A DNA stretch of 29,766 nt, taken from the IMG/VR virus record IMGVR_UViG_2711768076_000016; one strand, written 5' to 3'. The position numbers and the translations under genes were made by a program. The stretch is from a virus (Duplodnaviria > Heunggongvirae > Uroviricota > Caudoviricetes). Below, piece after piece: positions 11,279 through 28,240 of this stretch; within the stretch, counting starts at the first letter, position 1, and every line of letters begins with the position of its first letter. The notes beneath the pieces were generated by a model. The model was not told where the DNA came from and did not search any database. It worked only from the letters and a program-made list of their open reading frames with translations.

Positions 11279-11301
11279 CCTGTTCTGAAGGGTGAAGAAT
11301 C

Positions 11302-12234: not shown

Positions 12235-12715
12235 TTTTCAGCAGCCCACGGAGATGCGCTTTAACCGCGCCCGTGTCCGGCGGGCGTTTGTCACGATTGG
12301 TCAGCGTCATATGCGTGATGCCCGTCGGCTGGTGATGCGCCGTGCGCGGTCGGCACCGGGTGAAAACCCCGGTTATCAGACCGGACGCCTGGCTCGTTCG
12401 ATTGGTTACATGGTACCCAGAGCCAGTAAACATCGCCCTGGTTTTATGGCACGTATAGCCCCTAACCAGCGTAATGGAGAGGGAAACCGCCGTATCACTG
12501 GTGATTTTTATCCGGCTTTTTTGTTCTATGGAGTGAGGCGAGGGGCAAAGCGTCGTCGCAGCCATCATCGTGGTGCATCCGGTGGCAGCGGCTGGCGACT
12601 GGCTCCACGTAATAACTTCATGATGGAAACGCTTGAAAAGAACCGCAGCTGGACACGCTATTTTCTGGCGCGGGAATTGCGTAAATCACTGAAGCCGGAG
12701 CGACGACACAGATGA
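12209..12715 (+). CDS. Neck/tail-joining protein (HK97 gp10-like position)
   Basis: 168-aa ORF with GGAGG Shine-Dalgarno; basic, Arg-rich. Confidence 0.4.
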   Translation: MATSFLHVDFQQPTEMRFNRARVRRAFVTIGQRHMRDARRLVMRRARSAPGENPGYQTGRLARSIGYMVPRASKHRPGFMARIAPNQRNGEGNRRITGDFYPAFLFYGVRRGAKRRRSHHRGASGGSGWRLAPRNNFMMETLEKNRSWTRYFLARELRKSLKPERRHR

Positions 12716-13272
12716 AACTGACGCCTGTTATTGCTGCACTGCGTGCCCGCTGTCCGTATTTTGAAAACCGGGTTGCAGGTGCGGCCCAGTTCAAAAATCT
12801 GCCGGAGGTCGGAAAGCTGAAACTCCCGGCGGCATATGTTGTACCGGGTGATGATTCTCCGGGAGAAAACAAAAGCCAGACCGACTACTGGCAGGCGCTG
12901 AAAGAGGGTTTCTCCGTGATTGTCATACTGAGTAACGGGCGTGATGAGCGCGGTCAGTTTGCCTCGTATGATGTGGTGGACGATGTCCGGCAGATGCTCT
13001 TTAAGGCTCTGCTGGGCTGGAACCCGGAGGCGTGCGGTAACCCGATTACCTATGACGGCGGCACGCTGCTGGATCTGAATCGTCATGAGCTGATTTATCA
13101 GTTCGATTTTTCGGTCATCAGCGAGCTGACTGAAGACGATACCCGCCAGCAGGATGATCTGAACAGTCTGGATGAACTGCAAACGCTGGCGATTGATGTT
13201 GATTATCTCGATCCCGGTAACGGGCCTGACGGCGATATCGAACATCACACAGAAATAACCATTCCTTCCTGA
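12712..13272 (+). CDS. Tail completion / terminator-like protein
   Basis: 186-aa ORF, ATGA-coupled to the upstream gene, immediately before the sheath region. Confidence 0.4.
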   Translation: MKLTPVIAALRARCPYFENRVAGAAQFKNLPEVGKLKLPAAYVVPGDDSPGENKSQTDYWQALKEGFSVIVILSNGRDERGQFASYDVVDDVRQMLFKALLGWNPEACGNPITYDGGTLLDLNRHELIYQFDFSVISELTEDDTRQQDDLNSLDELQTLAIDVDYLDPGNGPDGDIEHHTEITIPS

Positions 13273-13280
13273 GGATCCTC

Positions 13281-13451
13281 ATGTTTGTGAAACCTGTTAA
13301 AGGGCGGTCAGTGCCTGACCCTGCCCGCAGCGACCTTTTGCCCGCCGAAGGGCGAAATGTTGACGAGAACAACTACTGGCTGCGCCGTGAAGCAGCTGGT
13401 GATATCCGGCGCGTGAATAAAAAGGTGAACACCGATGACGATAAGCTTTAA
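13281..13451 (+). CDS. Small protein (56 aa) preceding the tail sheath gene, DUF2635-like position
   Basis: ATG 13281 to TAA 13449-13451, translated by hand (MFVKPVKGRSVPDPARSD...); below the ORF-track length cutoff; overlaps the sheath start. Confidence 0.4.
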   Translation: MFVKPVKGRSVPDPARSDLLPAEGRNVDENNYWLRREAAGDIRRVNKKVNTDDDKL

Positions 13452-14931
13452 CACCATTCCGTCGAATACGCTGGTTCCGCTGTTTTATGCGGAAATGGAT
13501 AACCAGGCGGCGAATACTGCACAGGACAGCGGAGCATCGCTGCTGATTGGTCATGCCAGTAACGGTGCAGAGATTGTTGCCAACAGTCTGGTGCTGATGC
13601 CGTCGGCAGACTATGCACGCCAGATTTGTGGTGCGGGAAGTCAGCTGGCGCGTATGGTCGAGGCTTATCGCCAGACCGACCCGTTTGGTGAGCTGTATGT
13701 GATTGCCGTTCCGGAAGCCACAGGCGCGGCGGCAACGGTTACGCTGACGGTGACCGGGGAAGCAACCGAAAGCGGCACGGTGAATGTCTATGTGGGACGT
13801 ACCCGCGTGCAGGCTCCGGTGACCAACGGCGATAACGTCACGACGATTGCCAGCAGTATCAAAGATGCCATCAATGCCGTTCCGGCCCTGCCGTTTACGG
13901 CTTCATCTTCGGCAGGTGTGGTCACACTGACCGCGCGTCATAAGGGGCTTTGCGGGAATGAAATTCCTGTCAGCCTCAATTACTACGGCTTTGGTGGGGG
14001 CGAAGTGCTGCCAGCGGGCGTACAGATTGCCGTGGCGACGGGTACCGCCGGAACGGGTGCTCCGGTTCTCACCGGCGCGGTGGCTGCAATGGCGGATGAG
14101 CCGTTTGATTATATCGGCCTGCCGTTCAACGACACGGCCTCCGTTAACACGCTGGTGACCGAGATGAACGATACCAGCGGTCGCTGGAGCTATGCGCGTC
14201 AGCTGTATGGTCATGTGTATACGGCAAAGATCGGCACGCTGTCAGAACTGGTGACCGCAGGTGACCAGTTTAACCAGCAGCACATTACCCTGGCGGGGTA
14301 CGAAAAAGAGACCCAGACGCCTGCCGACGAACTGGCGGCAAGCCGTACCGCCCGCGCAGCGGTGTTTATTCGCAACGATCCGGCACGTCCCACGCAGACC
14401 GGTGAGCTGGTGGGTATGCTGCCTGCGCCGAAGGGGAAACGGTTCACGATGACCGAACAACAGACCCTGCTGTCTCATGGCGTGGCAACGGCGTATGTCG
14501 AAAGCGGGGTACTGCGCATTCAGCGTGATGTCACCACGTACAGGAAAAACGCTTACGGGGTTGCGGATAACAGCTACCTCGACAGTGAGACACTGCATAC
14601 CAGCGCGTATGTACTGCGCAAACTGAAATCCGTCATTACCAGTAAGTACGGGCGTCACAAGCTTGCCAGTGACGGTACCCGCTTTGGTCCCGGTCAGGCG
14701 ATTGTCACCCCGGCGGTGATCAAAGGGGAACTGCTGGCAACCTACCGTCAGCTTGAGCGTGCGGGGATCGTGGAAAACTACGAACTGTTTAAGCAGTACC
14801 TGGTTGTGGAGCGTGATGCCAGCGATCCGAACCGCCTGAACACGCTGTTCCCGCCTGACTATGTTAACCAGTTGCGTGTCTTTGCCGTGGTTAACCAGTT
14901 CCGTCTTCAGTATTCAGAGGAGTCTGCATAA
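13435..14931 (+). CDS. Contractile tail sheath protein (Mu gpL-like)
   Basis: 498-aa ORF followed by tube, chaperone and tape-measure genes in Mu-like order. Confidence 0.7.
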   Translation: MTISFNTIPSNTLVPLFYAEMDNQAANTAQDSGASLLIGHASNGAEIVANSLVLMPSADYARQICGAGSQLARMVEAYRQTDPFGELYVIAVPEATGAAATVTLTVTGEATESGTVNVYVGRTRVQAPVTNGDNVTTIASSIKDAINAVPALPFTASSSAGVVTLTARHKGLCGNEIPVSLNYYGFGGGEVLPAGVQIAVATGTAGTGAPVLTGAVAAMADEPFDYIGLPFNDTASVNTLVTEMNDTSGRWSYARQLYGHVYTAKIGTLSELVTAGDQFNQQHITLAGYEKETQTPADELAASRTARAAVFIRNDPARPTQTGELVGMLPAPKGKRFTMTEQQTLLSHGVATAYVESGVLRIQRDVTTYRKNAYGVADNSYLDSETLHTSAYVLRKLKSVITSKYGRHKLASDGTRFGPGQAIVTPAVIKGELLATYRQLERAGIVENYELFKQYLVVERDASDPNRLNTLFPPDYVNQLRVFAVVNQFRLQYSEESA

Positions 14932-15287
14932 TGGCCCGTATCGGGGGAACCTGTTATTTCAAAATTGACGGTCAGCAGCTATCGCTGACCGGCGGCATTG
15001 AGGTGCCCATGAACAGGACGGTCAATGATGACATCATCGGCCTGGACGGTTCAGTGGACCGCAAGGAAACTCACCGTGCGCCCTATGTCAAAGGGACCTT
15101 CAAGGTGCCGAAGAATTTTCCGGTGAGCAAAATCACCTCGTCTGATGAGATGACCATCACTGCCGAGCTGGCGAACGGTCAGGTCTATGTACTGTCGTCT
15201 GCCTGGCTGCACGGCGAAGCGAACCATAATGCCGAAGAAGGCACGGTTGATCTTGAGTTCCACGGTGAAGAAGGGGATTACCAGTAA
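14931..15287 (+). CDS. Tail tube protein (Mu gpM-like)
   Basis: 118-aa ORF immediately after the sheath gene. Confidence 0.6.
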   Translation: MARIGGTCYFKIDGQQLSLTGGIEVPMNRTVNDDIIGLDGSVDRKETHRAPYVKGTFKVPKNFPVSKITSSDEMTITAELANGQVYVLSSAWLHGEANHNAEEGTVDLEFHGEEGDYQ

Positions 15288-15705
15288 TGAAAGAGCTTGA
15301 GTTAAAGAAACCGATTACTGCTCATGGCGAGACACTCTCCGTACTTGAGTTTGATGAGCCCACCGGGAAAGATGTCCGCGAGCTGGGGTATCCCTACCAG
15401 ATGAATCAGGATGAGTCAGTCAGACTTCTGGCGCATGTGGTATCGAAATACATTGTGCGGCTGGCGAAAGTGCCGCAAAACTCTGTCGACCAGATGTCTC
15501 CGGCAGACCTGAATGCAGCGGCGTGGCTTGTGGCCGGTTTTTTCCTCCAGGCCTGACGGCTGAATACCTCACTGATCGCTTCTTTGACTGCGCCAGTTAC
15601 TGGCGCATTAATCCTTTCGAATTGCTGAATATGCCGATCAGTGAAATTCCCTTGCTGGTCAGTCAGGCAAACAGGATAGAGCAGGAGAAACGCACACATG
15701 GCTGA
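15287..15705 (+). CDS. Tail assembly chaperone with a putative programmed -1 frameshift extension
   Basis: Zero-frame ORF 15287..15556 (89 aa). Slippery heptamer T_TTT_TTC at 15538-15544 leads into the -1 frame ORF that ends at 15705, just overlapping the tape-measure start. Confidence 0.5.
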
Positions 15706-17530
15706 ATTTGAGCTTAAGGCGTTGATCACCGGTGTCGACAGACTTTCTCCCGCGCTGTCGAAAATGCAAAAGAAAATCCGGGGATTTAAACGCCAGGCGG
15801 AAGAAGCATCACAGGGTGGGCTGGCGCTTGGTGGCGGACTGGCAGCGGGTCTGACGCTTTCCCTGAAATCTTATGCCGATCAGGAAAACGCCGCCACCGG
15901 GCTGAAAGTCGCCATGATGGATGCGAACGGCGAGGTCGGAAAGAGCTTTCAGGACATCAATAAACTGGCTATTGGCCTGGGTAACCAGCTACCCGGTACA
16001 ACGGCTGATTTCCAGAACATGATGCAGATGCTGGTGCGTCAGGGGATCCCGGCAGAAAATATTCTTGGCGGTGTGGGTAAAGCGACAGCTTATCTTGCGG
16101 TACAACTGAAAAAAACACCGGAAGCGGCTGCTGAGTTTGCTGCAAAGATGCAGGATGCTACCGGAACGGCGTCAGAAGACATGATGGGGCTGTTCGACAC
16201 TATCCAGAAGGCGTTTTATCTGGGCGTTGACGATACCAACATGTTGTCCTTCTTCACTAAAACCAGTTCTGTTCTGAAGATGGTGAACAAGGACGGTCTT
16301 CAGGCTGCACAGAGCCTTGCCCCCATCAGCGTCATGATGGATCAGATGGGGATGAACGGGGAGTCGGCAGGTAATGCCCTGCGAAAAGTTATCCAGTCCG
16401 GATTAAGCGTTAAGAAAATCAGGGACGTTAATAAAGTTATGGCCCGCCAGAAACTCGGGGTACAGCTCGATTTTACTGACGGCAAAGGGAGTTTTGGCGG
16501 TCTTGATAACATGTTCAGGCAACTGGCAAAGCTGCGAAAACTGACCGACGTTAAGCGAACCGGTGTACTTAAGGCAATATTTGGTGATGATGCCGAAACC
16601 CTTCAGGTGGTCAATGCTCTGATCGATAAAGGAAAGGATGGTTACGATCAGATCCAGCAGAAGATGAATAAACAGGCCAGCCTGAATAAACGTGTTCAGG
16701 CCCAGCTTGGTACGCTGTCCAACCTGTGGGAGGCAATGACGGGGACCGCAACTAACGGCCTTGCGGCTATTGGCGGCGCATTTTCTGGTGACGTCAAAAA
16801 TATCACGCAATGGCTGGGGGAGTTAGGGGAAAAATTCACGAAGTTTGCGGATGAAAATCCCCGGGTTATTCGCGGCGTCGTCGGGCTTGCTGCCGGTCTT
16901 GCGATTCTGAAACTGGGATTGATGGGCGTGGGCAGTGCCATCAGTATCGTCAGCAGGATCATGTCGATGACGCCGATTGGCATGATTGCGACGGCGATAG
17001 CCCTGGCTGCGGGATTAATTATCACTAACTGGGATGTTGTCGGACCTTATTTTAAGAAGCTCTGGGAAACCATTAGTCCTTATTTTGAGGCTGGCTGGGA
17101 ACTTCTGAAGAAGGTTTTTGCCTGGTCGCCGCTGGGGATGGTGATCAATAACTGGGGACCGGTTGTTAAGTGGTTTCAGGATATGTGGGATAAGCTGAAG
17201 CCGATTATTGAATGGTTTACCGACAGTTCCGGTGACACGGTCGATGCCATTAACTCGGCGCAGTGGGGCGCGGGTGCTTATGATGCTTATGGGACGGGAA
17301 TACCGCCACGGGGATACACTCCTTATCCGGAGGTGGATCCGGCTCAGGCAAACAACGCCTCCGGTGCCACAGGTCCGAATCCCTTCATGATTAATAAAGC
17401 TACCGCGCCAAAAGTTGATGGTGAGATCAAGGTATCATTTATAAATATGCCACCAGGTATGCGGGTTACGGAAACACGCTCCAGTGGCATTGATATAAAT
17501 CACGATGTTGGCTATACCCGATTTTGGTAG
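15698..17530 (+). CDS. Tail tape measure protein
   Basis: 610-aa ORF, Ala/Gly/Leu-rich with hydrophobic stretches; position after the chaperone. Confidence 0.8.
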   Translation: MAEFELKALITGVDRLSPALSKMQKKIRGFKRQAEEASQGGLALGGGLAAGLTLSLKSYADQENAATGLKVAMMDANGEVGKSFQDINKLAIGLGNQLPGTTADFQNMMQMLVRQGIPAENILGGVGKATAYLAVQLKKTPEAAAEFAAKMQDATGTASEDMMGLFDTIQKAFYLGVDDTNMLSFFTKTSSVLKMVNKDGLQAAQSLAPISVMMDQMGMNGESAGNALRKVIQSGLSVKKIRDVNKVMARQKLGVQLDFTDGKGSFGGLDNMFRQLAKLRKLTDVKRTGVLKAIFGDDAETLQVVNALIDKGKDGYDQIQQKMNKQASLNKRVQAQLGTLSNLWEAMTGTATNGLAAIGGAFSGDVKNITQWLGELGEKFTKFADENPRVIRGVVGLAAGLAILKLGLMGVGSAISIVSRIMSMTPIGMIATAIALAAGLIITNWDVVGPYFKKLWETISPYFEAGWELLKKVFAWSPLGMVINNWGPVVKWFQDMWDKLKPIIEWFTDSSGDTVDAINSAQWGAGAYDAYGTGIPPRGYTPYPEVDPAQANNASGATGPNPFMINKATAPKVDGEIKVSFINMPPGMRVTETRSSGIDINHDVGYTRFW

Positions 17531-17558
17531 CCAGGATTCCCCTCACAGGTATTGCTGG

Positions 17559-17586
17559 TTGTAAGTCATAAATAGAGTGATAGAAT
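17559..17586 (+). promoter_or_regulatory. Candidate sigma70 promoter for the tail-module moron (-35 TTGTAA, 16-bp spacer, -10 TAGAAT)
   Basis: Hexamers read directly, about 36 bp upstream of ATG 17622. Confidence 0.35.
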
Positions 17587-17621
17587 TAATGCACATTTAG
17601 AAAAATGTTAATAGGCGAAAA

Positions 17622-18152
17622 ATGAAAGGCTATATCACAGCAAGTGTAATTCTTGGAGCAGCGGCTATTTTTTCATCTCTCATAATCTCTGGCAACATCT
17701 CCTTTAAAGATGAACATATTATTCAGTTATCTGGAGGAGCCATAAAACTTGGTGATGTTTATAAAGAAAATAAATTGATAAGTGCAAAGATTATTTTTCC
17801 AGATAATCAGGGTGAACAGATTCTTGTTGTCGACGGCAATCCTGAAAACTTTAAGGAGGATTTTCAGGAGAAATTAAATAAAGTAATAAAAACTTTAAAT
17901 GCGTCAAAGAAAAAAGATGAAGAGAAAGTTAGCCTGGATAATTTAAGTGTTATTGAAGAGTCTAAACTAGAGCTCGTTTCTGCGGTGCGTTACTCTGCTC
18001 AGTATGTTCCTATGTTTACTCTGACGCTGGACAAAAAAGAAATTACCATGCCTAAAAATACGGTAATATTTCCATTTGCCAGCGATGAAACAGCTAAGTA
18101 TTTAAATGAACAACAGCAAAAGTATAAAGATTCGTTGTTTCTGACTCGCTAA
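17622..18152 (+). CDS. Hypothetical protein with N-terminal signal/anchor (176 aa); moron inside the tail module
   Basis: Strongly AT-rich ORF inserted between the tape-measure and DNA-circularization genes; N-terminal hydrophobic segment (ASVILGAAAIFSSLIISG) then a Lys/Glu-rich soluble domain; has its own terminator. Confidence 0.5.
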   Translation: MKGYITASVILGAAAIFSSLIISGNISFKDEHIIQLSGGAIKLGDVYKENKLISAKIIFPDNQGEQILVVDGNPENFKEDFQEKLNKVIKTLNASKKKDEEKVSLDNLSVIEESKLELVSAVRYSAQYVPMFTLTLDKKEITMPKNTVIFPFASDETAKYLNEQQQKYKDSLFLTR

Positions 18153-18170
18153 TTAATAAAATTCATTACA

Positions 18171-18197
18171 AGGCCACCTTCTAATAGGTGGCTTTTT
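18171..18197 (+). terminator. Rho-independent terminator after the moron
   Basis: Stem AGGCCACCT / AGGTGGCTT with loop TCTAAT followed by a T-tract. Confidence 0.55.
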
Positions 18198-18213
18198 AAT
18201 TTTCGGAGTATAT

Positions 18214-19542
18214 ATGACGTGGAAAGACAGGCTTCAGGACGCGTCATTTCGCGGCGTGCCGTTTAAGGTTGAAGAAGAAAGTGCGGGAACCGGTCGCCGT
18301 GTGGAAACACATGAATACCCGAACCGCGACAAACCCTATACCGAAGACCTGGGGAAAATCACTTTTCGCCCGTCCATCACGGCTTATGTGGTGGGAGATG
18401 ACTGCTTTGACCAGCGCGATCGCCTGATTGAAGCGCTGAATAAACCAGGTCCCGGCACGCTTGTCCACCCGACATATGGTGAGCTGAAAGTCTGTGTTGA
18501 CGGGGAAGTTCGGGTCAGCACATCGAAAAGTGAAGGGCGTATTGTCCGCTTTGACCTGAAGTTTGTCGAAGCAGGAGAACTCTCTTACCCCACATCAGGT
18601 GCGGCGACGGCGCAGACGCTGATGTCATCCTGTTCTGCACTGGATGACTGCATCAGTGACAGCTTCAGCGGTTTCAGTATCGATGGTGTGGCGGATTTCG
18701 TGCAGAACGACGTTATCGGTAATGCCAGCATAATGCTGGGGTATGTTTCTGATGCGATGAAAGTGGTGGATTCTGCCGTATCGGATGCCGCCAGGCTGTT
18801 GCAGGGGGATATCTCGGTACTTCTGCCGCCGCCATCGTCAGGCAAAAATTTCGTTGAACAGGTGCAGAAAATGTGGCGTACCGGGAAACGCCTTTATGGT
18901 AACGCCAGCGACCTGGTCACCATGATCAAAACGCTTTCTGGTGTCAGCCTCGGCAGCGATTTGCAACCGCGCGGCGTCTGGAAAACGGACAGTAAAACCA
19001 CCGCCACAGCGACGCAGCAGCGTAACATGGTTGCCAGCACCCTTCGTACGACTGCAATCAGCGAAGCGGCGTATGCCGTTACCCGATTGCCTGCGCCAAC
19101 AACTTCTGCGGTGATGCAGAATGCCGCAGTGGGGCAGTCAACAACACCCGCGCAGAGCTCCGGCTGGCCTGCCGTCACGCATCCGGTGCTGAACAATGCA
19201 CCGGCGGTAAAAAACACGGTTGACCTGCCAACGTGGGAAGAACTGACCGACATTCGCGACACACTGAATACGGCAACTGATAAGGAGTTGTCCCGTACAA
19301 CCAGTGATGCGCTGTTTCTGGCGCTGCGCCGGGTGAAAGCAGATCTGAATGCGGATATCAACACGCGCCTTGAACAGTCTGCACGGATCATTCAGCGCAC
19401 GCCGGATGAGGTTTTACCCGCGCTGGTGCTGGCGGCGACCTGGTTTGATAACGCGGCGCGTGACGCGGACATTATCCGGCGTAATGCCATTACGCATCCC
19501 GGCTTTGTGCCGGTGATCCCTCTGAAGGTGCCAGTGCAATGA
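18214..19542 (+). CDS. DNA circularization protein (Mu gpN-like)
   Basis: 442-aa ORF directly after the tape-measure region, as in Mu-like tails. Confidence 0.55.
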   Translation: MTWKDRLQDASFRGVPFKVEEESAGTGRRVETHEYPNRDKPYTEDLGKITFRPSITAYVVGDDCFDQRDRLIEALNKPGPGTLVHPTYGELKVCVDGEVRVSTSKSEGRIVRFDLKFVEAGELSYPTSGAATAQTLMSSCSALDDCISDSFSGFSIDGVADFVQNDVIGNASIMLGYVSDAMKVVDSAVSDAARLLQGDISVLLPPPSSGKNFVEQVQKMWRTGKRLYGNASDLVTMIKTLSGVSLGSDLQPRGVWKTDSKTTATATQQRNMVASTLRTTAISEAAYAVTRLPAPTTSAVMQNAAVGQSTTPAQSSGWPAVTHPVLNNAPAVKNTVDLPTWEELTDIRDTLNTATDKELSRTTSDALFLALRRVKADLNADINTRLEQSARIIQRTPDEVLPALVLAATWFDNAARDADIIRRNAITHPGFVPVIPLKVPVQ

Positions 19543-20659
19543 ACGATAACGTCACGCTACGGGTAAATGGCCGAGAGTGGAATGGCTGGACATCGGTGCG
19601 CATCGGTGCCGGTATTGAACGGCTGGGGGGGGGGNNNNNNNNNNNNNNNNNNNNNNNNNNNNNNNNNNNNNNNNNNNNNNNNNNNNNNNNNCCCGCCAGT
19701 GGCCGGGAGATGAGGGTATCACCACGCTTCAGCCGCGCATTAAAAATGGTTCAAAAGTGGAAGTGCTGATTGGTGATGAGCTGGTGATCACCGGCTGGGT
19801 GGAGGCGACCCCCGTTCGTTACGATGCCCGTTCGGTCAGCACCGGTATTGCCGGACGTAGTCTGACTGCTGACCTGATTGACTGTGCAGCCGAACCGACA
19901 CAGTTTAACGGACGATCGCTGGTACAGATTGCGCAGGCGCTTGCTGCGCCTTTCGGCATTGAGGTGGTGAACAGCGATGCGCCGTCGGGTGTTATTCCGG
20001 ATGTCCAGCCTGATCACGGTGAAACGGTGATCGAGGTGATCAACAAAATACTCGGTCAGCAGCAGGCGCTGGCTTATGACGACCCGCACGGCAGGCTGGT
20101 GATTGGTGGTATTGGCTCAACGCGGGCACATACCGCGCTGGTACTTGGGGAAAACATCCTTTCCTGTGATACGGAGAAGAGTATCCGGGAGCGGTTTTCA
20201 GTTTACCAGGTGGCGGGGCAGCGTGCCGGAAACGACGATGATTTCGGTGAGGCCACCACCACCGCGCTGCGGGCCCGCACAGAGGATGCATTTATTGCCC
20301 GTTACCGTCCGATGTATATCAGGCAGACAGGGCAGGCTACGGGGGCAGGCTGTATTGCGCGTGCTGACTTTGAAGCCCGACAACGGGCGGCGCGGACGGA
20401 TGAAACCACCTATGTGGTGCAGGGCTGGCGACAGGGTAACGGTACGCTGTGGCAGCCCAACCAGCGGGTGATTGTCTTCGATCCGGTCTGTGGTTTCGAC
20501 AATACCGAACTGCTTGTCTCGGAAGTCACGTTTACTCAGGACCAGAATGGCACCCTGACGGAAATCCGTGTCGGCCCACCTGATGCTTATCTGCCTGAAC
20601 CCGAAGCCCCCGGCGCGCGGAAAAAGAAAAAAGCCAGAGTACAGGAGGACCCGTTCTGA
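19539..20659 (+). CDS. Baseplate hub protein (Mu gpP-like), interrupted by an assembly gap
   Basis: ORFs 19539..19769 and 19757..20659 are a single gene split by the N run; combined length of about 373 codons fits. Confidence 0.5.
19635..19691. other. Assembly gap (57 N) preceded by a 10-nt poly-G tract
   Basis: Read directly from the sequence. Confidence 0.95.
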
Positions 20660-21207
20660 TGAGGACGATTGAAGCCATGCAGCGACAACTTCTCGGCCTG
20701 ATTGGGCGGGCAGTGGTGAAAAGCATCAGTGCCGCCACGAAATGTCAGACCGTGGATGTGTCCCTGATTGCCGGTGAACCCAAAGCCGGGGTTGAACATC
20801 TTGAACCCTACGGTTTTACCGCAAGGGCAAACAGCGGTGCGGAAGCGGTGGTGTTGTTTCCGGATGGCGACCGTTCTCATGCGGTGGTTGTTACGGTGTC
20901 GGACCGGCGCTACCGCCTGAAAGGGCTGCAGACGGGTGAGGTGGCTGTCTATGACGATCAGGGGCAGTCCGTGACGCTGACCCGGGAGGGGATCGTGGTG
21001 GACGGTGCAGGTAAAACGATCACGTTTCGCAATTCACCTAAAGCACGTTTTGAAATGGACCTGGAAGTGACAGGACAGGTGAAAGACCTGTGCGACTCCA
21101 GCGGCACCACCATGTCAGCGATGCGGCTTGCCTATAACGGGCATCGTCACAGAGAGAACGGTCAGGGCAGTAACACCGACAAACCTGATAAAGCGATGGA
21201 GGCATGA
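20659..21207 (+). CDS. Baseplate spike / assembly protein (gpV- or Mu gp45-like)
   Basis: 182-aa ORF, ATGA-coupled, in the baseplate block. Confidence 0.55.
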   Translation: MRTIEAMQRQLLGLIGRAVVKSISAATKCQTVDVSLIAGEPKAGVEHLEPYGFTARANSGAEAVVLFPDGDRSHAVVVTVSDRRYRLKGLQTGEVAVYDDQGQSVTLTREGIVVDGAGKTITFRNSPKARFEMDLEVTGQVKDLCDSSGTTMSAMRLAYNGHRHRENGQGSNTDKPDKAMEA

Positions 21208-21632
21208 TGGAACTGTGGCTGACGGTGAACGGTAAACGCACCTGCGCCAGCGCACCGCTGGATCCGCTGACCCGCGCCGTGGTGATTTCCCTGTTTACCT
21301 GGCGGCGGGCGGAGCCTGATGACAACGCCGACGTCCCGATGGGATGGTGGGGGGATACCTGGCCTGCGGTACAGAATGACCGTTACGGCTCCCGACTGTG
21401 GCTGCTTCAGCGCAGCAAACTGACCAATCAGCTGGTGCTGACGGTAAGGGGGTATATCCGCGAATGCCTGCAATGGATGATTGATGACGGCGTGGTGTCC
21501 CGTATTGATCTGGATATCCGCCGCACCGGGATTAATGAACTGGGTAACAGTATCACTCTCTGGCGTCGTGACGGACCGGTAATGATTTCTTTTGATGATC
21601 TGTGGAGTGCGATAACGCATGGCGGACAGTGA
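21204..21632 (+). CDS. Baseplate protein (Mu gp46-like)
   Basis: 142-aa ORF in the baseplate block. Confidence 0.5.
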   Translation: MMELWLTVNGKRTCASAPLDPLTRAVVISLFTWRRAEPDDNADVPMGWWGDTWPAVQNDRYGSRLWLLQRSKLTNQLVLTVRGYIRECLQWMIDDGVVSRIDLDIRRTGINELGNSITLWRRDGPVMISFDDLWSAITHGGQ

Positions 21633-22677
21633 ATTTCAGCGCCCGACGCTGGCTGAAAATATCAGTATGCTCCGTAACGATTTATTCGCCAGGCTGGACG
21701 TCAGCGACACGCTCCGGCGCATGGATGAAGACGTGCGGGCAAAGGTGTATGCGGCGGCGCTGCATACGGTTTACGGGTACATCGATTATCTGGCAATGAA
21801 CATGCTGCCTGACCTGTGCGATGAGTCCTGGCTGGCGCGACATGCTGCGATGAAACGGTGTCCGCGCAAGGGGGCCACGGCTGCCAGCGGGTATATGCGC
21901 TGGGAAGGTGTCAGCGATGGCCTGAAGGTGACCGCCGGGAGTGTTATTCAGCGCGATGACCTGGTTCAGTATACTGCAACTGCCGATGCAACCAGCTCCG
22001 GTGGTGTCCTGCGCGTGCCGATCGCCTGCTCAAATGCAGGCGCGGTCGGTAACGCTGACGACGGTACGGCATTAATCCTGGTCACGCCGGTGAATGGTCT
22101 GCCGTCTTCCGGTGTGGCTGACACCCTGACAGGCGGATTTGATACTGAAGAGCTGGAAACGTGGCGCGCCCGCGTCATTGAGCGGTATTACTGGACGCCG
22201 CAGGGCGGGGCTGACGGGGACTATGTCGTATGGGCTAAAGAAGTGCCCGGCATTACCCGCGCATGGACATACCGTCACTGGATGGGAACGGGAACTGTCG
22301 GTGTGATGATTGCCAGCAGTGACCTGATTAATCCCATTCCGGAAGAATCAACGGAAACGGCGGCAAGACAACATATCGGGCCACTGGCCCCGGTGGCAGG
22401 CTCTGATTTGTATGTGTTCAGGCCGGTGGCACATACGGTGGATTTTCATATCCGCGTGACGCCGGACACACCGGAAATACGGGCTGCCATCACCGCGGAG
22501 TTGCGTTCGTTCCTGCTGCGTGATGGTTATCCGCAGGGAGAACTGAAGGTATCGCGTATCAGTGAGGCGATTTCCGGTGCGAACGGGGAATACAGCCATC
22601 AGTTGCTTGCACCGGCAGACAATATCTCCATTGCAAAAAATGAACTGGCGGTACTGGGGACGATTTCATGGACGTGA
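21619..22677 (+). CDS. Baseplate J-like protein (Mu gp47-like)
   Basis: 352-aa ORF; size and position upstream of the tail-fibre genes. Confidence 0.65.
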
Positions 22678-23255: not shown

Positions 23256-23894
23256 ATGCATCGTATAGACACGAAAACCGCGCAGAAGGATAAGTTCGGC
23301 GCGGGTAAGAACGGTTTTACCCGTGGTAACCCCCAGACCGGCACGCCTGCCACCGATCTGGATGATGACTACTTTGACATGTTGCAGGAAGAGCTCTGCA
23401 GCGTGGTGGAGGCATCCGGTGCCAGCCTGGAGAAGGGGCGGCATGACCAGCTGCTTACCGCGCTTCGTGCGCTGCTGTTAAGTCGCAAAAATCCGTTTGG
23501 CGATATCAAATCGGACGGCACGGTGAAAACGGCTCTTCAAAACCTTGGTTTGGGAGAAGCGGCAAAACGGAATGTAGGTAACGGGCAAAATGGTCTGAAT
23601 GGGTATGTAACGATTCCGTTAATTATTTCAGGTTCCCGGAGAACACTGATTATTCAGTGGGGGCAGGCGAGATTTGGTGGGTCTGGTGGTGAAGATGCCG
23701 GATATCTTAATGATTTTCCTTTTGCCTTTCCGTCAGCATGTTATGGAATGATAGTTAGTCATGTGGGGCATACACCTTCAGGCGCAGGAATCCTGTCGGC
23801 TTCTGCAATTACATCAAATCAGTTCCGCGGTTTTTCAAGCATAGCGACTGCTGCAAATGCTGTATTAGGTCGTTATATCGCTATAGGGGGTTAA
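23256..23894 (+). CDS. Tail fibre protein: constant N-terminal part plus the currently expressed variable C-terminal part
   Basis: 212-aa ORF; the inverted repeat and crossover site lie inside it (23533-23590); the C-terminal third is AT-rich. Confidence 0.7.
23533..23558 (-). repeat. Left crossover site of the invertible segment (Pin/Gin/Hin-type 26-bp site)
   Basis: Read on the minus strand: TTCTCCCAAACC-AA-GGTTTTGAAGAG. Lies within a 46-bp inverted repeat (23545-23590) that matches 25031-25076 exactly. Confidence 0.65.
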
Positions 23895-23895
23895 T

Positions 23896-24333
23896 ATGTT
23901 TTATAGTCCATCATTAAACATTTTTGTGAATCCTGCGCTTAAGGATGATTACATTAATGCAAATTCATGGCCAGATGATGCTCTGGCTGTCAGTGATGAT
24001 GTTTATAATGAATTTGCAATCAATACGCCCCCATATGACAAAATTCGTGTTGCAGGAAAAAATGGATTACCCACATGGGCACTAATACCTCCACCATCGC
24101 ATGAAGAACTTATTCAACAGGCAGAATCAGAAAGGCAATTATTGCTTAATCAGGCCAACGAATACATGAACAGTAAACAATGGCCCGGTAAAGCCGCTAT
24201 TGGTCGTCTGAAAGACGAGGAACTGGCACTATATAATTTGTGGCTGGATTACCTGGACGCACTGGAACTGGTGGATACCTCCAGTGCTCCAGATATTGAA
24301 TGGCCTACACCTCCGGTAACTCAGGCCAGCTAA
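23896..24333 (+). CDS. Tail fibre assembly protein (Tfa), expressed orientation
   Basis: 145-aa ORF directly after the fibre gene; conserved Tfa C-terminus (VDTSSAPDIEWP). Confidence 0.65.
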   Translation: MFYSPSLNIFVNPALKDDYINANSWPDDALAVSDDVYNEFAINTPPYDKIRVAGKNGLPTWALIPPPSHEELIQQAESERQLLLNQANEYMNSKQWPGKAAIGRLKDEELALYNLWLDYLDALELVDTSSAPDIEWPTPPVTQAS

Positions 24334-24700
24334 TCTCAGGAGCCGTCGAAGTGTCGACGGCTTTTACTTCTTTTTTGTAGTCCATCCAGGCGGATAGTTT
24401 TTCTTTATCTGTACTGCTGATATCACCAAGCATTAATTCCACTCGCCAGTCAGCTGTGACATTATCGGCATGAGCAAGTAACTGCATTCGCTGATTTTCA
24501 GCACGTGCGACATAATCAATCGCCGGAGATTTCAGTACCGGTAAACCATTTTCATCTGACGTGATTAATTTACCCCCTTCCTGCTGTCCGGCAATTAATT
24601 CATTGTATAAGTCTGTACTTATCTCAACAATGTCAGCAGGCATGTCGCTGTTTATACCATCAAAGAAAAAACCATTAGTCGATTTTGAGAAATAAATCAT
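24305..24700 (-). CDS. Alternative tail fibre assembly protein (Tfa'), silent orientation
   Basis: Minus-strand ORF 24305..24730, likely start at the Met at 24700; C-terminus VDTSTAPEISWP parallels the + strand Tfa; converges tail-to-tail with it. Confidence 0.65.
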   Translation of the reverse strand: MIYFSKSTNGFFFDGINSDMPADIVEISTDLYNELIAGQQEGGKLITSDENGLPVLKSPAIDYVARAENQRMQLLAHADNVTADWRVELMLGDISSTDKEKLSAWMDYKKEVKAVDTSTAPEISWPELPEV

Positions 24701-24708
24701 AGATATAC

Positions 24709-25076
24709 CTATACACCGATTGCTACCCAAAAACAGGACCTTTCATATTTGACAATTTCTCCCTGAGATATACCGCCAACAATTATATAGAACTGTGATT
24801 TGGTGATATCAGAACAGTTCGCAATGCCCATTGCAGATATACCAGCCAACGACGTTGTATGTGGCACAGCCAACAGCGCAAGTGAACGATTTGGGAATGT
24901 TACCGGGTAAGTCACCGTATAGTTTGATGCTCCACTGACAATACCCCACTGAATAATCAGACCTGAAGGGAGTTTTTGAAAACCCGTTGATGAAAGTGAA
25001 CTGGCAAACGCCGCCATATCCGGAATTTGGTTTTGCCCGTTACCTACATTCCGTTTTGCCGCTTCTCCCAAACCAA
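24709..25076 (-). CDS. Alternative variable tail-fibre C-terminal segment, promoterless until inversion
   Basis: Minus-strand frame begins with the same residues encoded by the inverted repeat ([14 protein letters not shown]) as the + strand fibre, then diverges. Confidence 0.6.
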
Positions 25077-25088
25077 CGTTTATGAAAA
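25063..25088 (+). repeat. Right crossover site of the invertible segment
   Basis: TTCTCCCAAACC-AA-CGTTTATGAAAA; resembles the hix/gix-type site layout (12 + 2 + 12). Confidence 0.65.
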
Positions 25089-25142
25089 TGCAGAAATAAC
25101 GAGAAAATGGCATCATTCCTGCTTTTGTCAGAGGGAGCTACC

Positions 25143-25334
25143 ATGCTTATTGGCTATGTTTGCGTATCAACAAATGACCAGAAAATCGATCTACAACGTA
25201 ATGCGTTGAACTGTGCAGGATGCGAGCTGATTTTTGAAGACAAGATAAGCGGTACAAAGTCCGAGAGCCTAGGGCTGACAGTGCTGTTCTTGATGCAAAT
25301 TAAAGGATTTAATAGTGAGTTGCGGCCTTACTAA
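25143..25334 (+). pseudogene. pin: Truncated serine DNA invertase (Pin/Gin/Hin family), N-terminal about 45 residues only
   Basis: MLIGYVCVSTNDQKIDLQRNALNCAGCELIFEDKISGTK matches the invertase catalytic N-terminus including the active-site Ser. Similarity ends near 25278 and the frame stops after 18 unrelated codons. GAGGGA Shine-Dalgarno at 25131-25136. Confidence 0.7.
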
Positions 25335-25345
25335 TGTAAGGCCGC
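25322..25345. terminator. Hairpin between the truncated invertase and the convergent restriction-like gene
   Basis: Stem GCGGCCTTA / TAAGGCCGC with loop CTAATG; 22 bp from the stop of the minus-strand gene. Confidence 0.4.
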
Positions 25346-25367
25346 TATAATCATTTTATTAATTGCA

Positions 25368-27257
25368 TTAATCGTATTTTGGCCATACTTTCAATGCAAT
25401 TTCCCCCAACTTTTTACCTCGCTCCTGTATTTCACTCTCATCCCATTTATCCTTAAGTATAAGTGGTATGTTCAGTCGTAGATTGGTGTGGACGATGAGA
25501 GCATCACGTTTTTTCAGAAATACAGCATTCTGAACGGAACGGTTTACGCTAAGGTTAAGCAAAGTTAGATTTCCCAACGTAGCTATCGCTTGTTGCCGTT
25601 TCCTTACCAGTAGCTGTTCAGGGGTAAGATCGGTTCCAGACAGAACAATTTGGTTCATTACCGTAGCATCTGAATTTGTCACCATATGACCATTTTCGAG
25701 AGGCCAACAGGAATACCAACTTTGAGGCATAAGATGATCGATATCGAGATTAGAAAGATTTGGAACATCAGGCTTTTCTGTCTTCACTTGGCGACAAAGT
25801 TCTCTTTCAAGTTCCGTTAACATTGAGCGCATTTTCGGTGCGTCGAGCCTGCCAGGATAAAGTGGAGCATTGATGCAAGCGTTGAGAAATTCTGAGTCCC
25901 CAGGCCAACGTGAGGCTTCGCCATTTAAGCTATTGAGGATATTACGTAACTCAACACTGGAAATTTCCGTTTTAGACAAGTGTCGCAATACATTCATAAA
26001 TACATTGTTGTAATTCTTTGGCGTCAGGCCACATACGGATCTTCGTACTACGTAGGAGACAAGATCATTATACATGGCTGCTTTCTCATCATCGGCGATG
26101 TTAGCTATCGAAATGAACAAAGCAAGCGGATAGAGTGTCGTCACATCATAGGCTGCGATGCGATGTCCAAAGTGTGAGATGGGGGTTGTGCCAAAACCAC
26201 CAACCAATTCTTTATATTGTGATGCATATTGTTTGAGGCGCTTTACTTGCAGATCTGCTCGTTGTGAAGGCAAGTCCTTACTTACATAATCACGATACTC
26301 ATTGTAAAGGCGAGACAGATCAATTTCACGCTGCCTTTCTGATTGCAATGTCGCATGTACAAGCCACTCCATGCGTGGTTTATTAATACGTCCACGGCGT
26401 TGCTTTTCCGACCAGTATTTATCTTCAAAGATCTTCCACTCATTTTCATATAATTCAATAGCATTAATATTTTCATGCTCAGCGCACATAAAGATATAGT
26501 TGCGAATAAGATCCGTTGCATGAAGTTCCGCTCCTCGCCCATTTAATGTTTCAAAAATTATTTGGGCATCATCTTCAGCTTCGAGAAATATGCTTACCAG
26601 TTTCAGATCCGTCAAGACAGCCTCAATTAGTGCTACAGCATTTTCTTGTGGTGAGTGGTTTTCTATTTTAATCCATTTTATAAAGGCTTCAGTAAAAAAC
26701 CATAATGCCTCTAGTGACGGCGGGTGGTTGAAATGTTTACGTAACGTACCATGTTGCGTGAAGCTATCAGAAAATACATTACGGAGATCGTCAATATTAT
26801 CAACATTAAGACTTTGAATAAAATGAGTTTGATCTCGAAAAGTTGGCCACAGTTTGAAGCATTCTACCTTTTTATTTCTCATCGTTGCTTCGTTTGTATT
26901 TTTCAAGCAAGTCAATACTAACCCTTCCAGTTCAGAAAGGCCTGTAGCACGCAATGATAATCGAATGGATGCCAGAATATATTGAAGAGTGGTTAAACGT
27001 TGCTGGCCGTCAATAATATGTATGGTATCTACACCTAACAAGCTGTTTTTGAGTTGAGGTTCCAGCACCACCGCGCCGAGGAAATGAGGGGTTGGTTTTG
27101 TTCCCGAAAGTCGGCTCTGTGCTTTTTCGAAGATATCCTCCAACAAAGCTGACCATTGGTTTCGTTGCGTCCATACGTAGGCACGTTGATAGAATGGAAC
27201 ACGATATTGTCGTTGATTTTGGAAAATTTGCTGGATGGTTAGCGTTTCGGATTTCAT
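25368..27257 (-). CDS. DUF262/DUF1524 fusion protein; putative GmrSD-family type IV (modification-dependent) restriction endonuclease
   Basis: 629-aa minus-strand ORF. N-terminal DUF262/ParB-like motifs (FYQRAYVW, IIDGQQRLTT, FETLNGRGAELHATDLIRN). C-terminal DUF1524/His-Me-finger motifs (DIDHLMPQS, GNLTLLNLSVNRSVQN). AT-rich, convergent with the phage late operon. Confidence 0.7.
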   Translation of the reverse strand: MKSETLTIQQIFQNQRQYRVPFYQRAYVWTQRNQWSALLEDIFEKAQSRLSGTKPTPHFLGAVVLEPQLKNSLLGVDTIHIIDGQQRLTTLQYILASIRLSLRATGLSELEGLVLTCLKNTNEATMRNKKVECFKLWPTFRDQTHFIQSLNVDNIDDLRNVFSDSFTQHGTLRKHFNHPPSLEALWFFTEAFIKWIKIENHSPQENAVALIEAVLTDLKLVSIFLEAEDDAQIIFETLNGRGAELHATDLIRNYIFMCAEHENINAIELYENEWKIFEDKYWSEKQRRGRINKPRMEWLVHATLQSERQREIDLSRLYNEYRDYVSKDLPSQRADLQVKRLKQYASQYKELVGGFGTTPISHFGHRIAAYDVTTLYPLALFISIANIADDEKAAMYNDLVSYVVRRSVCGLTPKNYNNVFMNVLRHLSKTEISSVELRNILNSLNGEASRWPGDSEFLNACINAPLYPGRLDAPKMRSMLTELERELCRQVKTEKPDVPNLSNLDIDHLMPQSWYSCWPLENGHMVTNSDATVMNQIVLSGTDLTPEQLLVRKRQQAIATLGNLTLLNLSVNRSVQNAVFLKKRDALIVHTNLRLNIPLILKDKWDESEIQERGKKLGEIALKVWPKYD

Positions 27258-27519
27258 TGTTTACCTATAAATAACATTAAGTGACATTCCACAAGAGTAA
27301 GAAATTCATCTGAGTCAGAACAATCATTTTTATGTAGTTATGATACAGTGTATTTGTTACTGGTGAAGTAAAAATAAGAAACCCCGCTTTTGAATGCTGA
27401 CGCGCTACGGTTTCATTGGATATTTTTTGTCTCTCCTCCATCCCGTTGGTGTTCTGTTTAGACTGATAACTTGCTGTTTTAATTGATATTAGTTTCTTGC
27501 GCCGCCCAATCATGGTTGG

Positions 27520-27539
27520 TGGGTTGGTGGGTGGGTGGG
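27520..27539 (+). repeat. G-quadruplex-type motif (GGG TTGGT GGG T GGG T GGG) within short GGTKGGT repeats
   Basis: Read directly; lies about 265 bp upstream of the start of the minus-strand restriction-like gene. Confidence 0.5.
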
Positions 27540-27604
27540 AGTTAAATCCACATTGGTATGAAGAACATAGAATATGAATTAGTGTTTCAGAATTGCTTCA
27601 GCCA

Positions 27605-27934
27605 TCACTTTTTAATACGTTCAATTTGAATGTTTATTTCCGAAACAATTTTTTCAGGTTTCAGTCCCTCGTTAGATTGCACAAAATCTCTAATTTGCAT
27701 CATTCGATGTGCACAAATTTGTAATTCGCTATAAACACTTAGCTCGTCAGATTCATTTTGAGATTGTTCACCTGTTTAAAATTCTACATAAGTATGTGGC
27801 GGATTGTGATAAACACGAGAAATCGGGGTTGGCCACCATTCCTCACCGGTCACTACGTCCGCATCGAATAGTACAGTTTTGTCAATTTCCATTAATTTCT
27901 GGATAAGAACAGAAGTTTTCAAGCGAACCTCCAT
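27605..27934 (-). pseudogene. Small minus-strand reading frame (about 109 codons) interrupted by one in-frame TAA
   Basis: Hand translation on the minus strand: MEVRLKTSVLIQKLMEIDKTV...HTYVEF, stop at 27776-27778, then TGEQSQNESDELSVYSELQICAHRMMQIRDF...IERIKK. No clear Shine-Dalgarno. Confidence 0.25.
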
Positions 27935-28075
27935 TTTGCCATAAAGTGGTTATCAAAACGCTACGTAAACTATACAAAATCAGCGAGTTATGGTGAAGGT
28001 AAAAAAACAAGTTTAGATGTTCGTTAAGTATAAAATTGTTTTAATTCAATTGGATATAATAATTTTCTAAATCTA

Positions 28076-28240
28076 ATGTTACGCCATATGGGCTGGACTG
28101 AAGCCGCAGACCTGATTGTTAAAGGTATGGAAGGCGCAATCAACGCCAAGACTGTAACCTATGACTTCGAACGTCTGATGGAAGGCGCTAAACTGCTGAA
28201 ATGTTCAGAATTTGGTGATGCGATCATCAAGAACATGTAA
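28076..28240 (+). pseudogene. icd: 3'-terminal fragment of isocitrate dehydrogenase gene (displaced icd end, icdC-like) marking the attR region
   Basis: Encodes [54 protein letters not shown] followed by a stop, which matches the C-terminus of E. coli Icd as I recall it. No upstream icd sequence precedes it; e14-type phages integrate within the icd 3' end. Confidence 0.8.

Follow-up and report, generated by a model that had tools for sequence, protein, structure and literature searches.

An e14-like prophage tail-fibre switch with a truncated resident invertase gene occurs in both orientations in E. coli

The stretch of DNA analysed here (29,766 nucleotides, IMGVR_UViG_2711768076_000016; hereafter the window) contains an invertible tail-fibre switch next to a truncated invertase gene, and we consider it probable, with odds of roughly three in four, that the switch is a cis-only 'client' which serine invertases from other loci of the same cell still invert. 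An e14-like prophage inserted in icd and morphogenetically complete has its right end in the window; it combines a lambdoid late region with Mu-like tail and baseplate genes and the Pin/Gin/Hin-type invertible fibre switch. The prophage-chromosome junction contains a duplicate of the icd C-terminus (icdC, 28076-28240, plus strand), apparent from the ORF translation and from the PGAP annotation of relatives. The icd fragment is followed by iraM and ycgX, corresponding to the attR duplicate and iraM-ycgX-bluR flank of e14-like icd integration, and from position 28066 onward the sequence is 95% identical to K-12.

The 46-bp perfect inverted repeat around a 1.5-kb segment that had been reported in the first-pass annotation is present at 23545-23590 and 25031-25076, as the core of 51-nt arms with 98% complementarity (23540-23590 and 25031-25081), and since the match is so long in a 5-kb region it is not a chance product. 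The same annotation placed 26-bp hix/gix-like crossover sites inside this repeat; such sites do exist, but only their inner half-site and central dinucleotide are located within the perfect repeat. The left site as read from the sequence (23533-23558, CTCTTCAAAACC TT GGTTTGGGAGAA) is centred on 23545-23546, and the right site (25063-25088, TTCTCCCAAACC AA CGTTTATGAAAA) on 25075-25076. The core AAACC-WW-GGTTT is common to the left site, the K-12 e14 sites and hixL (TTCTTGAAAACCAAGGTTTTTGATAA), and with cores AAACC-TT/AA-GGTTT the window has two inverted 26-bp sites of the type which defines the Hin/Gin/Cin/Pin (Din) systems, that is with imperfect dyad symmetry and identical central dinucleotides. 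The right site is unchanged in 7/8 truncated alleles. The crossover centres delimit an invertible segment of the P-segment type of 1532 bp (23545-25076), and flipping this segment in locus L002 gives locus L001 with 0 mismatches.

The constant N-terminal part of the fibre gene (StfP-like, 23256-23544, plus strand, in ORF 23256-23894) is outside the invertible segment, is the same in both orientations (L001 and L002), and is 96.7% identical to K-12 ymfQ-stfP up to position 23577. In the window it is joined in the expressed orientation to the variable C-terminus A (23559-23894, plus strand, Gp53-like_C domain), which is followed by the tfa gene of variant A (23896-24333, plus strand, Caudo_TAP, E = 1.8e-33). 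The minus strand carries the tfa gene of variant B, silent in the window orientation (24305-24700/24730, Caudo_TAP, E = 2.2e-24), with a 396-nt CDS annotated by PGAP at the equivalent position in a relative, and the silent fibre C-terminus B (24709-25062 in ORF 24709-25116, Gp53-like_C domain). Inversion joins C-terminus B to the constant part, giving a 218-aa fibre which is annotated in L002 and L003; the fused ORFs are complete in either orientation (212 aa and 218 aa), and the two fused fibre proteins were found on 431 and 441 contigs, respectively. Both invertible tail-fibre segments and invertases that complement one another are textbook knowledge, and the initial reading of this segment as a host-range switch of the Mu G, P1 C and e14 P type, with two mirror-image sets of fibre C-terminus plus tfa, stands: the constant N-terminus is outside, the alternative C-termini are inside with their own chaperone each, and Gp53-like_C and Caudo_TAP domains are found on both strands.

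With regard to the resident invertase, the pin ORF begins at 25143 (MLIGYVCVSTNDQ...) and its homology to PinE ends at 25278, after which unrelated sequence leads to a stop codon at 25332-25334. Alignment to K-12 pinE gives a remnant (25143-25278, plus strand) of about 45 codons including the catalytic serine (VSTNDQ), and the Pfam match is confined to positions 2-54 of the 145-position Resolvase profile, in agreement with the earlier description of an invertase decapitated near codon 45 with its catalytic serine kept. The window locus hence lacks the intact adjacent serine invertase of other such switches, a protein of about 185-190 aa that comprises a catalytic domain, an E-helix and a C-terminal HTH. 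The remnant differs from PinE by R7C, N14K and T15I, with R7C falling inside the conserved motif YVRVS, and a frameshift is present in addition in some truncated pin alleles. A sequencing error hiding an intact invertase of about 190 aa had been put forward as what would overturn this description, but the truncation is not such an error, because 288 complete genomes share the identical post-breakpoint sequence and PGAP annotates a partial recombinase there. The truncation junction was found in 288/5426 complete E. coli genomes, and eight truncated alleles with at least five different segment contents all have one and the same sequence after the breakpoint; as one junction is common to all truncated alleles, the truncation happened once and has a single origin. 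Around this junction, a promoter scan gave no promoter-like site, and a terminator scan gave a single terminator-like match, which is no more than shuffled controls give; a 10-bp perfect hairpin (GCGGCCTTAC...GTAAGGCCGC) can be read from the sequence alone at 25322-25345.

In blastn searches against K-12 e14, homology ends at 25278 and returns at 28066. The block in between (25279-28065) extends to the prophage right end (attR), replaces the 3' part of pinE and mcrA of K-12 e14, and is common to all truncated alleles. It contains a gene on the minus strand (25368-27257) for a predicted GmrSD-family type IV (modification-dependent) restriction enzyme of 629 aa, which has the DUF262 (GmrS-like) N-terminal and DUF1524 (GmrD-like, HNH-type) C-terminal domains in one polypeptide (GmrSD_N PF03235, E = 1.7e-33; GmrSD_C PF07510, E = 4.9e-20) and is matched by PADLOC as mREase_IV over residues 1-629 of 629 (1523.7 bits). 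One ancestral event swapped everything from about codon 45 of pin to attR, thus the 3' three-quarters of pin together with mcrA, for this GmrSD type IV cassette. The swap destroyed the resident invertase and spared the cis parts, of which the two crossover sites remain, as do the first 135 bp of pin, corresponding to the Fis-dependent enhancer.

Truncation of pin had led to the suggestion that the switch is probably frozen, with the segment locked in the orientation which it held at the time of truncation and all variation between genomes older than that event. The remnant is indeed unable to encode an active recombinase, given its 45 codons, R7C in YVRVS and the frameshift of some alleles, and in K-12 deletion of pinE locks the segment despite the presence of pinQ and pinR (PMC12529663). 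The orientations contradict this suggestion, as the truncation occurred once, yet right-junction queries covering segment, truncation and GmrSD end found 17 genomes in the window orientation and 16 in the flipped orientation behind the same truncation and segment type. It is also contradicted by two isolates, strains 22-250 and 22-245 (NZ_AP038812.1 and NZ_AP038810.1), which have 0 mismatches over 110 kb, made up of 50 kb each of chromosome and plasmid plus the 10.2-kb locus, and for which the sole difference is an exact flip of 23545-25076. Both orientations are thus seen in natural and clonal populations (17 vs 16 genomes and one clonal pair), as expected of a Din system, and a frozen switch is unlikely for the lineage as a whole. 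It may apply to four carriers (A8, A42, S87 and CFSAN061769), which among the GmrSD-carrying genomes counted are those lacking any other chromosomal invertase-like sequence, and which all have the segment in one orientation. This is the flipped state (4/4), whereas none of the 11 window-orientation genomes lacks such a sequence (0/11), a difference with a hand-calculated one-sided Fisher p of about 0.056 for genomes that are phylogenetically non-independent and a count confined to chromosomes. The flipped state of these four carriers is suggestive, and only that, of the ancestral orientation.

The flips could also be attributed to RecA, through general homologous recombination of one inverted arm with the other, without any site-specific invertase. 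The 46 bp of perfect identity between the arms of the window would be enough for rare RecA-mediated exchange, and an exchange anywhere inside the identical core would leave the same sequence. In every relative, the siblings with the flip among them, identity between the arms is limited to 14 perfect bp, or about 19 bp if one mismatch is allowed, which is below the usual minimal length for RecA pairing. The stretch common to these arms is exactly the hix-type half-site plus crossover dinucleotide, the flip boundary of the sibling strains falls at the left crossover site, and the orientation ratio of about 1:1 is typical for switches driven by an invertase, all of which makes RecA-dependent flipping very improbable. 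We give still less credence to orientation differences that reflect assembly choice, or import of the whole segment from other prophages, rather than inversion in situ. P2-like prophages of the same genomes hold similar fibre and tfa cassettes and are possible donors, and one junction of the window itself has an unusual chimeric patch of 32 bp; however, the sibling genomes are complete and their flip is perfectly reciprocal without a base change, where DNA from another source would be expected to differ in sequence. Nor does a segment of 1.5 kb between 19-bp repeats pose an assembly ambiguity, and a state picked from mixed reads would itself be evidence for flipping.

For inversion by invertases acting in trans, the reading that we favour, strand exchange by a serine invertase would take place at the central dinucleotides of the two inverted 26-bp sites (23545/46 and 25075/76), and would join the constant N-terminus (23256-23544) either to C-terminus A and tfa-A or to C-terminus B and tfa-B. 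The acting enzymes would be P2-type or Mu-type relatives of Pin and Gin, or PinQ/PinR-type enzymes of lambdoid prophages. The first-pass annotation had left room for a paralogous invertase acting in trans, and this fits both the flips and the invertase-like genes found elsewhere in carrier genomes. Such places were counted per record with chimeric queries (GmrSD tag plus invertase DNA), and the counts cover matches irrespective of position and intactness: strains 22-250 and 22-245 each have three extra chromosomal places matching invertase DNA, two of which match the 3' part of pinE missing from the remnant and one of which is pinR-like, and at least one extra place was found in 55 of the best 60 GmrSD-carrying genomes. 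By synteny in 22-250, the Rac site (ttcA) was empty, with no prophage; a lambdoid prophage at ydfJ (Qin site) contained no invertase in the 50 kb examined, its fibre gene being followed by T3SS effectors, and there was no invertase in the first 50 kb of the IncHI2-type plasmid of the siblings.

Strain SFE8 contains the truncated locus together with a P2-like prophage encoding an intact invertase of 188 aa, which unlike the window remnant is full-length and has 84% identity to PinE (157/188). The switch of this prophage (locus L014) has a site adjoining the invertase that is identical to the right site of the window, and a silent fibre cassette which is about 93% identical; it differs from the window in its P2-type backbone (J/I/H genes, sheath and tube), and is likely to be a donor of the enzyme and a different element from that of the window. 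Precedent for action in trans comes from K-12, where PinQ (38% identical to PinE) flips the e14 P segment in trans at the e14 inversion repeat TTGGTTTGGGAGAAGG (PMC12529663), and, going by titles cited in the same paper, Pin complements hin and Mu gin. The locking of the K-12 segment by the pinE deletion with pinQ and pinR present leaves room for two explanations: chromosomal paralogues may be inefficient at native levels, or the deletion may have taken out the enhancer. The enzyme assigned to a given strain is an inference, and the window's own strain may likewise have a donor invertase.

The first-pass speculation that a Fis-binding enhancer is retained in the 5' portion of pin is supported at the level of sequence homology. 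Alignment with the hin locus (L020) identifies a candidate homologue of the 65-bp Fis-dependent hin enhancer at about 25163-25228, with candidate Fis cores GTATCAACAAATGAC (25164-25178) and GTGCAGGATGCGAGC (25213-25227), wholly upstream of the breakpoint at 25278 and ending about 50 bp before it. As in hin, the candidate enhancer region is within the first 30 or so codons, where the remnant aligns with hin including the TAATG tract. The geometry and position of the hin enhancer are described in PMC3798978; between the hixL centre and the hin Fis-I core there are 105.5 bp, compared with 95.5 bp between the crossover centre of the window and the homologous core of pin, which places the enhancer-equivalent nearer to the site by 10 bp, or one helical turn. 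A Fis-core scan found the first pin core and did not pick up the second, of which the centre is only 3/7 A/T and thus less AT-rich than its counterpart in hin. The position of the pin enhancer is based on homology with hin, since no pin-specific enhancer mapping was found in the literature searched, and an alignment of eight truncated alleles contained too few substitutions to show extra constraint on the Fis cores compared with neighbouring bases. Flipping would be expected to require Fis and the retained enhancer. A more tentative extension, which we regard as possible but doubtful, is that the 135-bp pin stump has been kept as a recombinational enhancer and that the lineage, which makes up about 5% of E. 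coli, now leaves its fibre switch to outside enzymes. If so, flipping and its rate would depend on which prophages, and hence which invertases, share the cell, and the locus would be a natural cis-only inversion module linking prophages; as a corollary, the 32-bp junction chimera would be a trace left by a culture of the sequenced strain in which both orientations were present.

The closest known system is the P segment with PinE of K-12 e14 (stfP-tfaP / tfaE-stfE-pinE-mcrA), which belongs to the same prophage family and has the same icd integration site. The two share the crossover core AAACC-WW-GGTTT followed by GGGAGAA, the gene order ymfQ, fibre, tfa, tfa', fibre C', pin, and the first 45 pin codons at about 90% DNA identity. 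They differ in that pin of the window breaks off at about codon 45 and the GmrSD cassette takes the place of the pinE 3' part and mcrA, in that the fibre and tfa cassettes are other alleles (only 164 bp of tfa match, at 81%), and in that the window prophage retains 13 kb of head and tail genes missing from K-12. Trans inversion by PinQ/PinR (Kirigo et al., NAR 2025, PMC12529663) similarly involves an invertase from another prophage, the same repeat and alternative chimeric fibres; in K-12, however, trans action adds to that of an intact resident PinE, while in the window lineage it would be the sole route. Inversion of the e14 segment was recently tied to a block of T2 adsorption (PMC12529663), but this anti-phage block of the StfE2 type belongs to K-12 and does not extend by inference to the different cassettes of the window. 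As in the Hin/H-segment system of Salmonella and the Gin/G-segment system of Mu, the 26-bp sites have the same core and the invertase start is about 70 bp from one site, although unlike these the window locus is without a resident enzyme.

This kind of system is not new, and the cis-only variant is modestly interesting. A common prophage lineage of single origin has lost its invertase through a swap of defence genes (mcrA to GmrSD), and fresh flips persist, which cautions that a neighbouring pseudogene alone is no ground for scoring such switches as dead. The truncation is in effect a natural deletion experiment that has spared the two sites along with the enhancer-equivalent 135 bp at the 5' end, and comparison of this wild truncation with the engineered full pinE deletion that is reported to lock the K-12 segment makes the cis requirement of Pin-type inversion testable. 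Reliance on the invertases of other prophages could furthermore tie phage defence or host range to the community of prophages.

Finally, the perfect 46-bp version of the repeat is private to the assembly of the window (GCA_001286685.1), of which the source is a draft WGS contig. A patch of 32 bp (23559-23590, plus strand) matches the beginning of the opposite arm exactly and lengthens the repeat to 46 bp; it differs from every relative in 27/32 bases and encodes 11 other residues where the relatives have LSLAGTASGVI. The patch junction was absent from all complete E. coli genomes searched. An explanation as a de Bruijn junction-node swap (32 = k − 15, with k = 47) was considered and dropped as numerology, with no assembler step that clearly yields the patch. 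The replacement is in register and without homology at its inner end, and the patch therefore looks more like a consensus chimera than like gene conversion. The patched fibre protein was found on one contig, compared with 431 contigs for the unpatched form.

The window covers the right end of an e14-like prophage inserted in icd, and the duplicated icd C-terminus (icdC, 28076-28240) is followed by iraM, ymgK/L, ycgX and bluR, the same as in K-12. The gene content upstream comprises a Q antiterminator, holin, endolysin, HNH-terminase, head genes and Mu-type tail and baseplate genes, with the HNH endonuclease (5268-5618) directly upstream of the small terminase in the usual HNH-terminase arrangement. 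In a comparison with K-12 e14, the latter matches the window at 7432-8570 and next from 21890 onwards, thus approximately 13 kb of morphogenesis genes (8570-21890) have been deleted from the cryptic e14 of K-12 and kept in the window's prophage, which from its sequence looks morphogenetically complete. The ORFs at 2138-2944 (+, 268 aa) and 17622-18152 (+, 176 aa) gave no Pfam match at E ≤ 0.001.

The window was searched for repeats, and this returned arms at 23540-23590 and 25031-25081 (51 nt, 98% complementarity, 1440 nt apart), of which 46 nt are perfect (23545-23590 and 25031-25076). Both this inverted repeat and the two opposed sets of fibre C-terminus and tfa genes had been described in the first-pass annotation, and both are present on re-inspection. 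On the + strand, the fibre gene (23256-23894, 212 aa, Gp53-like_C domain) is followed by a tail-fibre assembly gene (23896-24333, Caudo_TAP domain), while the opposite (-) strand contains a second fibre C-terminus (24709-25116, Gp53-like_C domain) and a second tail-fibre assembly gene (24305-24700/24730). There is a complete fibre ORF in either orientation (212 or 218 aa) with its own tfa gene next to it, and both orientations are predicted to be functional states. The predicted functional crossover sites are the 26-bp hix-type sites at 23533-23558 (left, CTCTTCAAAACC TT GGTTTGGGAGAA) and 25063-25088 (right, TTCTCCCAAACC AA CGTTTATGAAAA); their core is common to the K-12 e14 sites and Salmonella hixL, and both contain the e14 inversion repeat given in PMC12529663.

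The invertase ORF (MLIGYVCVSTNDQ...) starts at the ATG at 25143, and in the alignment to K-12 PinE the homology ends at 25278, after approximately 45 codons, followed by unrelated sequence and a stop at 25332-25334. The Pfam match to Resolvase is limited to the first third of that domain, and together with the alignment this bears out the earlier description of a decapitated invertase. Homology to K-12 e14 is lost at 25278 and is back at 28066, ten bases before icdC, with the 3' part of pinE and mcrA (1.6 kb, 4822-6405 in the K-12 locus L004) replaced by 2.8 kb (25279-28065). The sole gene in this block (25368-27257, - strand) encodes a 629-aa GmrSD protein with GmrSD_N and GmrSD_C domains, a full-length match to the PADLOC type IV methyl-directed restriction enzyme model. 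Hence one type IV restriction gene was swapped for another at the prophage right end, a swap that also carried off three-quarters of pin. The truncation junction was found in 288/5426 complete E. coli genomes (at least 80% coverage), and the sequence after the breakpoint is identical across eight sampled alleles despite at least five different invertible-segment contents, which shows a single event and rules out the sequencing error that had been put forward as the alternative. The coding sense of the pin stump is decaying: in the window's clade it contains R7C in the conserved YVRVS motif as well as N14K and T15I, and a 1-bp deletion near 25267 is found in other stump alleles.

The prophage's right-end cargo slot looks like a hotspot of defence-gene swapping. 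It is filled by mcrA, another type IV enzyme, in K-12 e14 and ON470584.1, and in other alleles a DinI-like gene with a frameshift lies between the GmrSD gene and attR. Just past the stump stop, on the 3' side of the convergent GmrSD gene, is a hairpin with a perfect 10-bp stem (GCGGCCTTAC TAAT GTAAGGCCGC, 25322-25345); it was not called by a simple terminator scan, and may be a bidirectional terminator imported with the GmrSD cassette. The tail module of ON470584.1 ('Escherichia phage vB_EcoM-689R6') is the same as that of the window, but there an entire invertase gene and mcrA come after it. This record includes host genes (icd, mnmA, hflD and others). It opens with the invertase, contains no more than part of a fibre gene downstream of mcrA, and seems to represent a prophage region whose contig was broken or rearranged at the invertible segment.

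Orientation was assessed with queries running from 400 bp of the segment through the right site, stump and breakpoint into the end of the GmrSD gene, for which coverage of at least 80% is possible only in genomes with the truncation. Among these carriers, 17 genomes have the orientation of the window and 16 the opposite. The E. coli strains 22-250 and 22-245, which come from the same source, have chromosomes of 5,073,329 and 5,073,334 bp and a 240,042-bp plasmid each, and both contain the truncated recombinase. Apart from the flip there are no mismatches between them in 50 kb of chromosome, 50 kb of plasmid and the 10.2-kb locus, and reverse-complementing exactly the segment 23545-25076 converts one locus to the other without residual mismatches. 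The flip is therefore younger than any point mutation separating the isolates, and far younger than the truncation. The first-pass annotation had considered the switch probably frozen and had proposed a check for both orientations; these are seen among genomes with the truncation and in this clonal pair, and the evidence says that the switch is not frozen. That assembly choice or cassette import lies behind the orientation differences is very improbable, as the flip between the siblings is perfectly reciprocal, without a single base change, and a mixed read population would in itself mean flipping.

These data contradict a frozen switch, which may nevertheless apply to the few carriers that have no other invertase. 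Four carriers of this segment type (A8, A42, S87 and CFSAN061769) are without other invertase-like sequence on their chromosomes, and all four have the orientation opposite to the window, with variant B (the alternative to variant A, the fibre C-terminus expressed in the window) in the expressed position; this is a weak hint from a small and phylogenetically non-independent sample. The variant B state may have been the orientation when the truncation occurred. The switch is probably truly dead in some further-degraded loci: in NZ_OZ409596.1 (locus L013, 1-2640), which has a mutated right crossover site, the place of the fibre genes is taken by an IS629 fragment and a group II intron reverse transcriptase, and in NZ_CP145630.1 (locus L008, 465-1570) stfP is partial.

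In all relatives the repeat arms are alike over only ~19 bp (14 perfect), with the two fibre variants parting directly after LGLGE. Only in the window is the tract 23559-23590, the normal start of variant A, swapped in register for the first 32 bp of variant B, and this 32-bp patch gives the 46-bp perfect repeat. The patched junction is present in no complete genome (best full-length match 90.6%), and among ~15 billion proteins the patched form is found on one contig only, with the unpatched A and B forms on 431 and 441 contigs, respectively. As the inner end of the patch is without homology and the window lies on a 67-kb contig from the draft assembly GCA_001286685.1, a chimera (consensus or assembly) arising from a culture with both orientations is at least as likely as a one-off gene conversion. 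Whichever its origin, the 46-bp length reported initially is correct for the window, but is not a property of the switch system. Given a genuine 46-bp repeat, RecA-dependent exchange between the arms could invert the segment at a low rate, but it is unlikely to explain the flipping, since the genomes that do differ have only the 14 perfect bp, exactly the hix half-site.

The Hin enhancer, 65 bp long and located ~100 bp from hixL, is bounded by two Fis sites that enclose AT-rich ATTTA and TAATG tracts (PMC3798978). In the hin locus L020 (hixL centre 1426.5, ATG 1501), the distance from hixL to the centre of the proximal core GTGTCAACAATTGAC is 105.5 bp. The pin stump can be aligned to hin over the whole enhancer stretch, with a candidate first Fis core (GTATCAACAAATGAC, 25164-25178) whose centre lies 95.5 bp from that of the crossover, closer than in hin by one helical turn, then an intervening stretch (...GATCTACAACGTAATGCG...) and a candidate second core (GTGCAGGATGCGAGC, 25213-25227), which has a poor Fis consensus and was missed by a simple scan. 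The alignment positions place the end of the enhancer equivalent ~50 bp before the breakpoint, and by homology to hin it would be retained in the stump. Full deletion of pinE locks the K-12 segment even though pinQ and pinR are present (PMC12529663), which fits equally well with a needed cis element inside pin and with PinE being the main enzyme at native expression.

Invertase-like sequences were counted using a GmrSD tag and invertase DNA combined in one query, counting the matching places per genome record. With K-12 pinR plus the pinE 3' part missing from the stump, each sibling has three extra chromosomal places, and with the pinE 3' part alone two, suggesting two Pin/Gin-type and one PinR-type invertase-like sequence in each. 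At least one extra invertase-like place was found in 55/60 of the best GmrSD carriers, and SFE8 combines the truncated locus with a P2-like prophage containing an intact 188-aa invertase (157/188 identical to PinE), beside which lies a site equal to the window's right site, base for base. The earlier provision that a paralogous invertase might act in trans fits the invertase-like sequences in carriers and the intact enzyme in SFE8. Pin reportedly complements hin and Mu gin. PinQ, from another cryptic prophage and 38% identical to PinE, inverts the e14 segment (PMC12529663), and trans action on the segment described here would be unsurprising given the published evidence.

With its crossover sites, fibre cassettes and two orientations, the locus is of the same kind as the e14 P-segment, Mu G and P1 C host-range switches, but it differs in lacking a resident invertase, and its candidate enhancer is recognised by homology only. 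We class it as a cis-only form of a known switch system which arose by a defence-gene swap, and which is present in ~5% of complete E. coli genomes. Trans-acting invertases have long been known, so the surprise for a specialist is limited; the locus does offer a natural dissection of cis versus trans requirements, and a warning that a dead invertase next door does not mean a dead switch. Strain 22-250 also contains, at its Qin site (ydfJ), a lambdoid prophage (locus L016, NZ_AP038812.1, 1-26200) with genes for T3SS effectors past its tail fibre (NleG-family, nleC and a HECT-type E3 ligase) that are unrelated to the switch.
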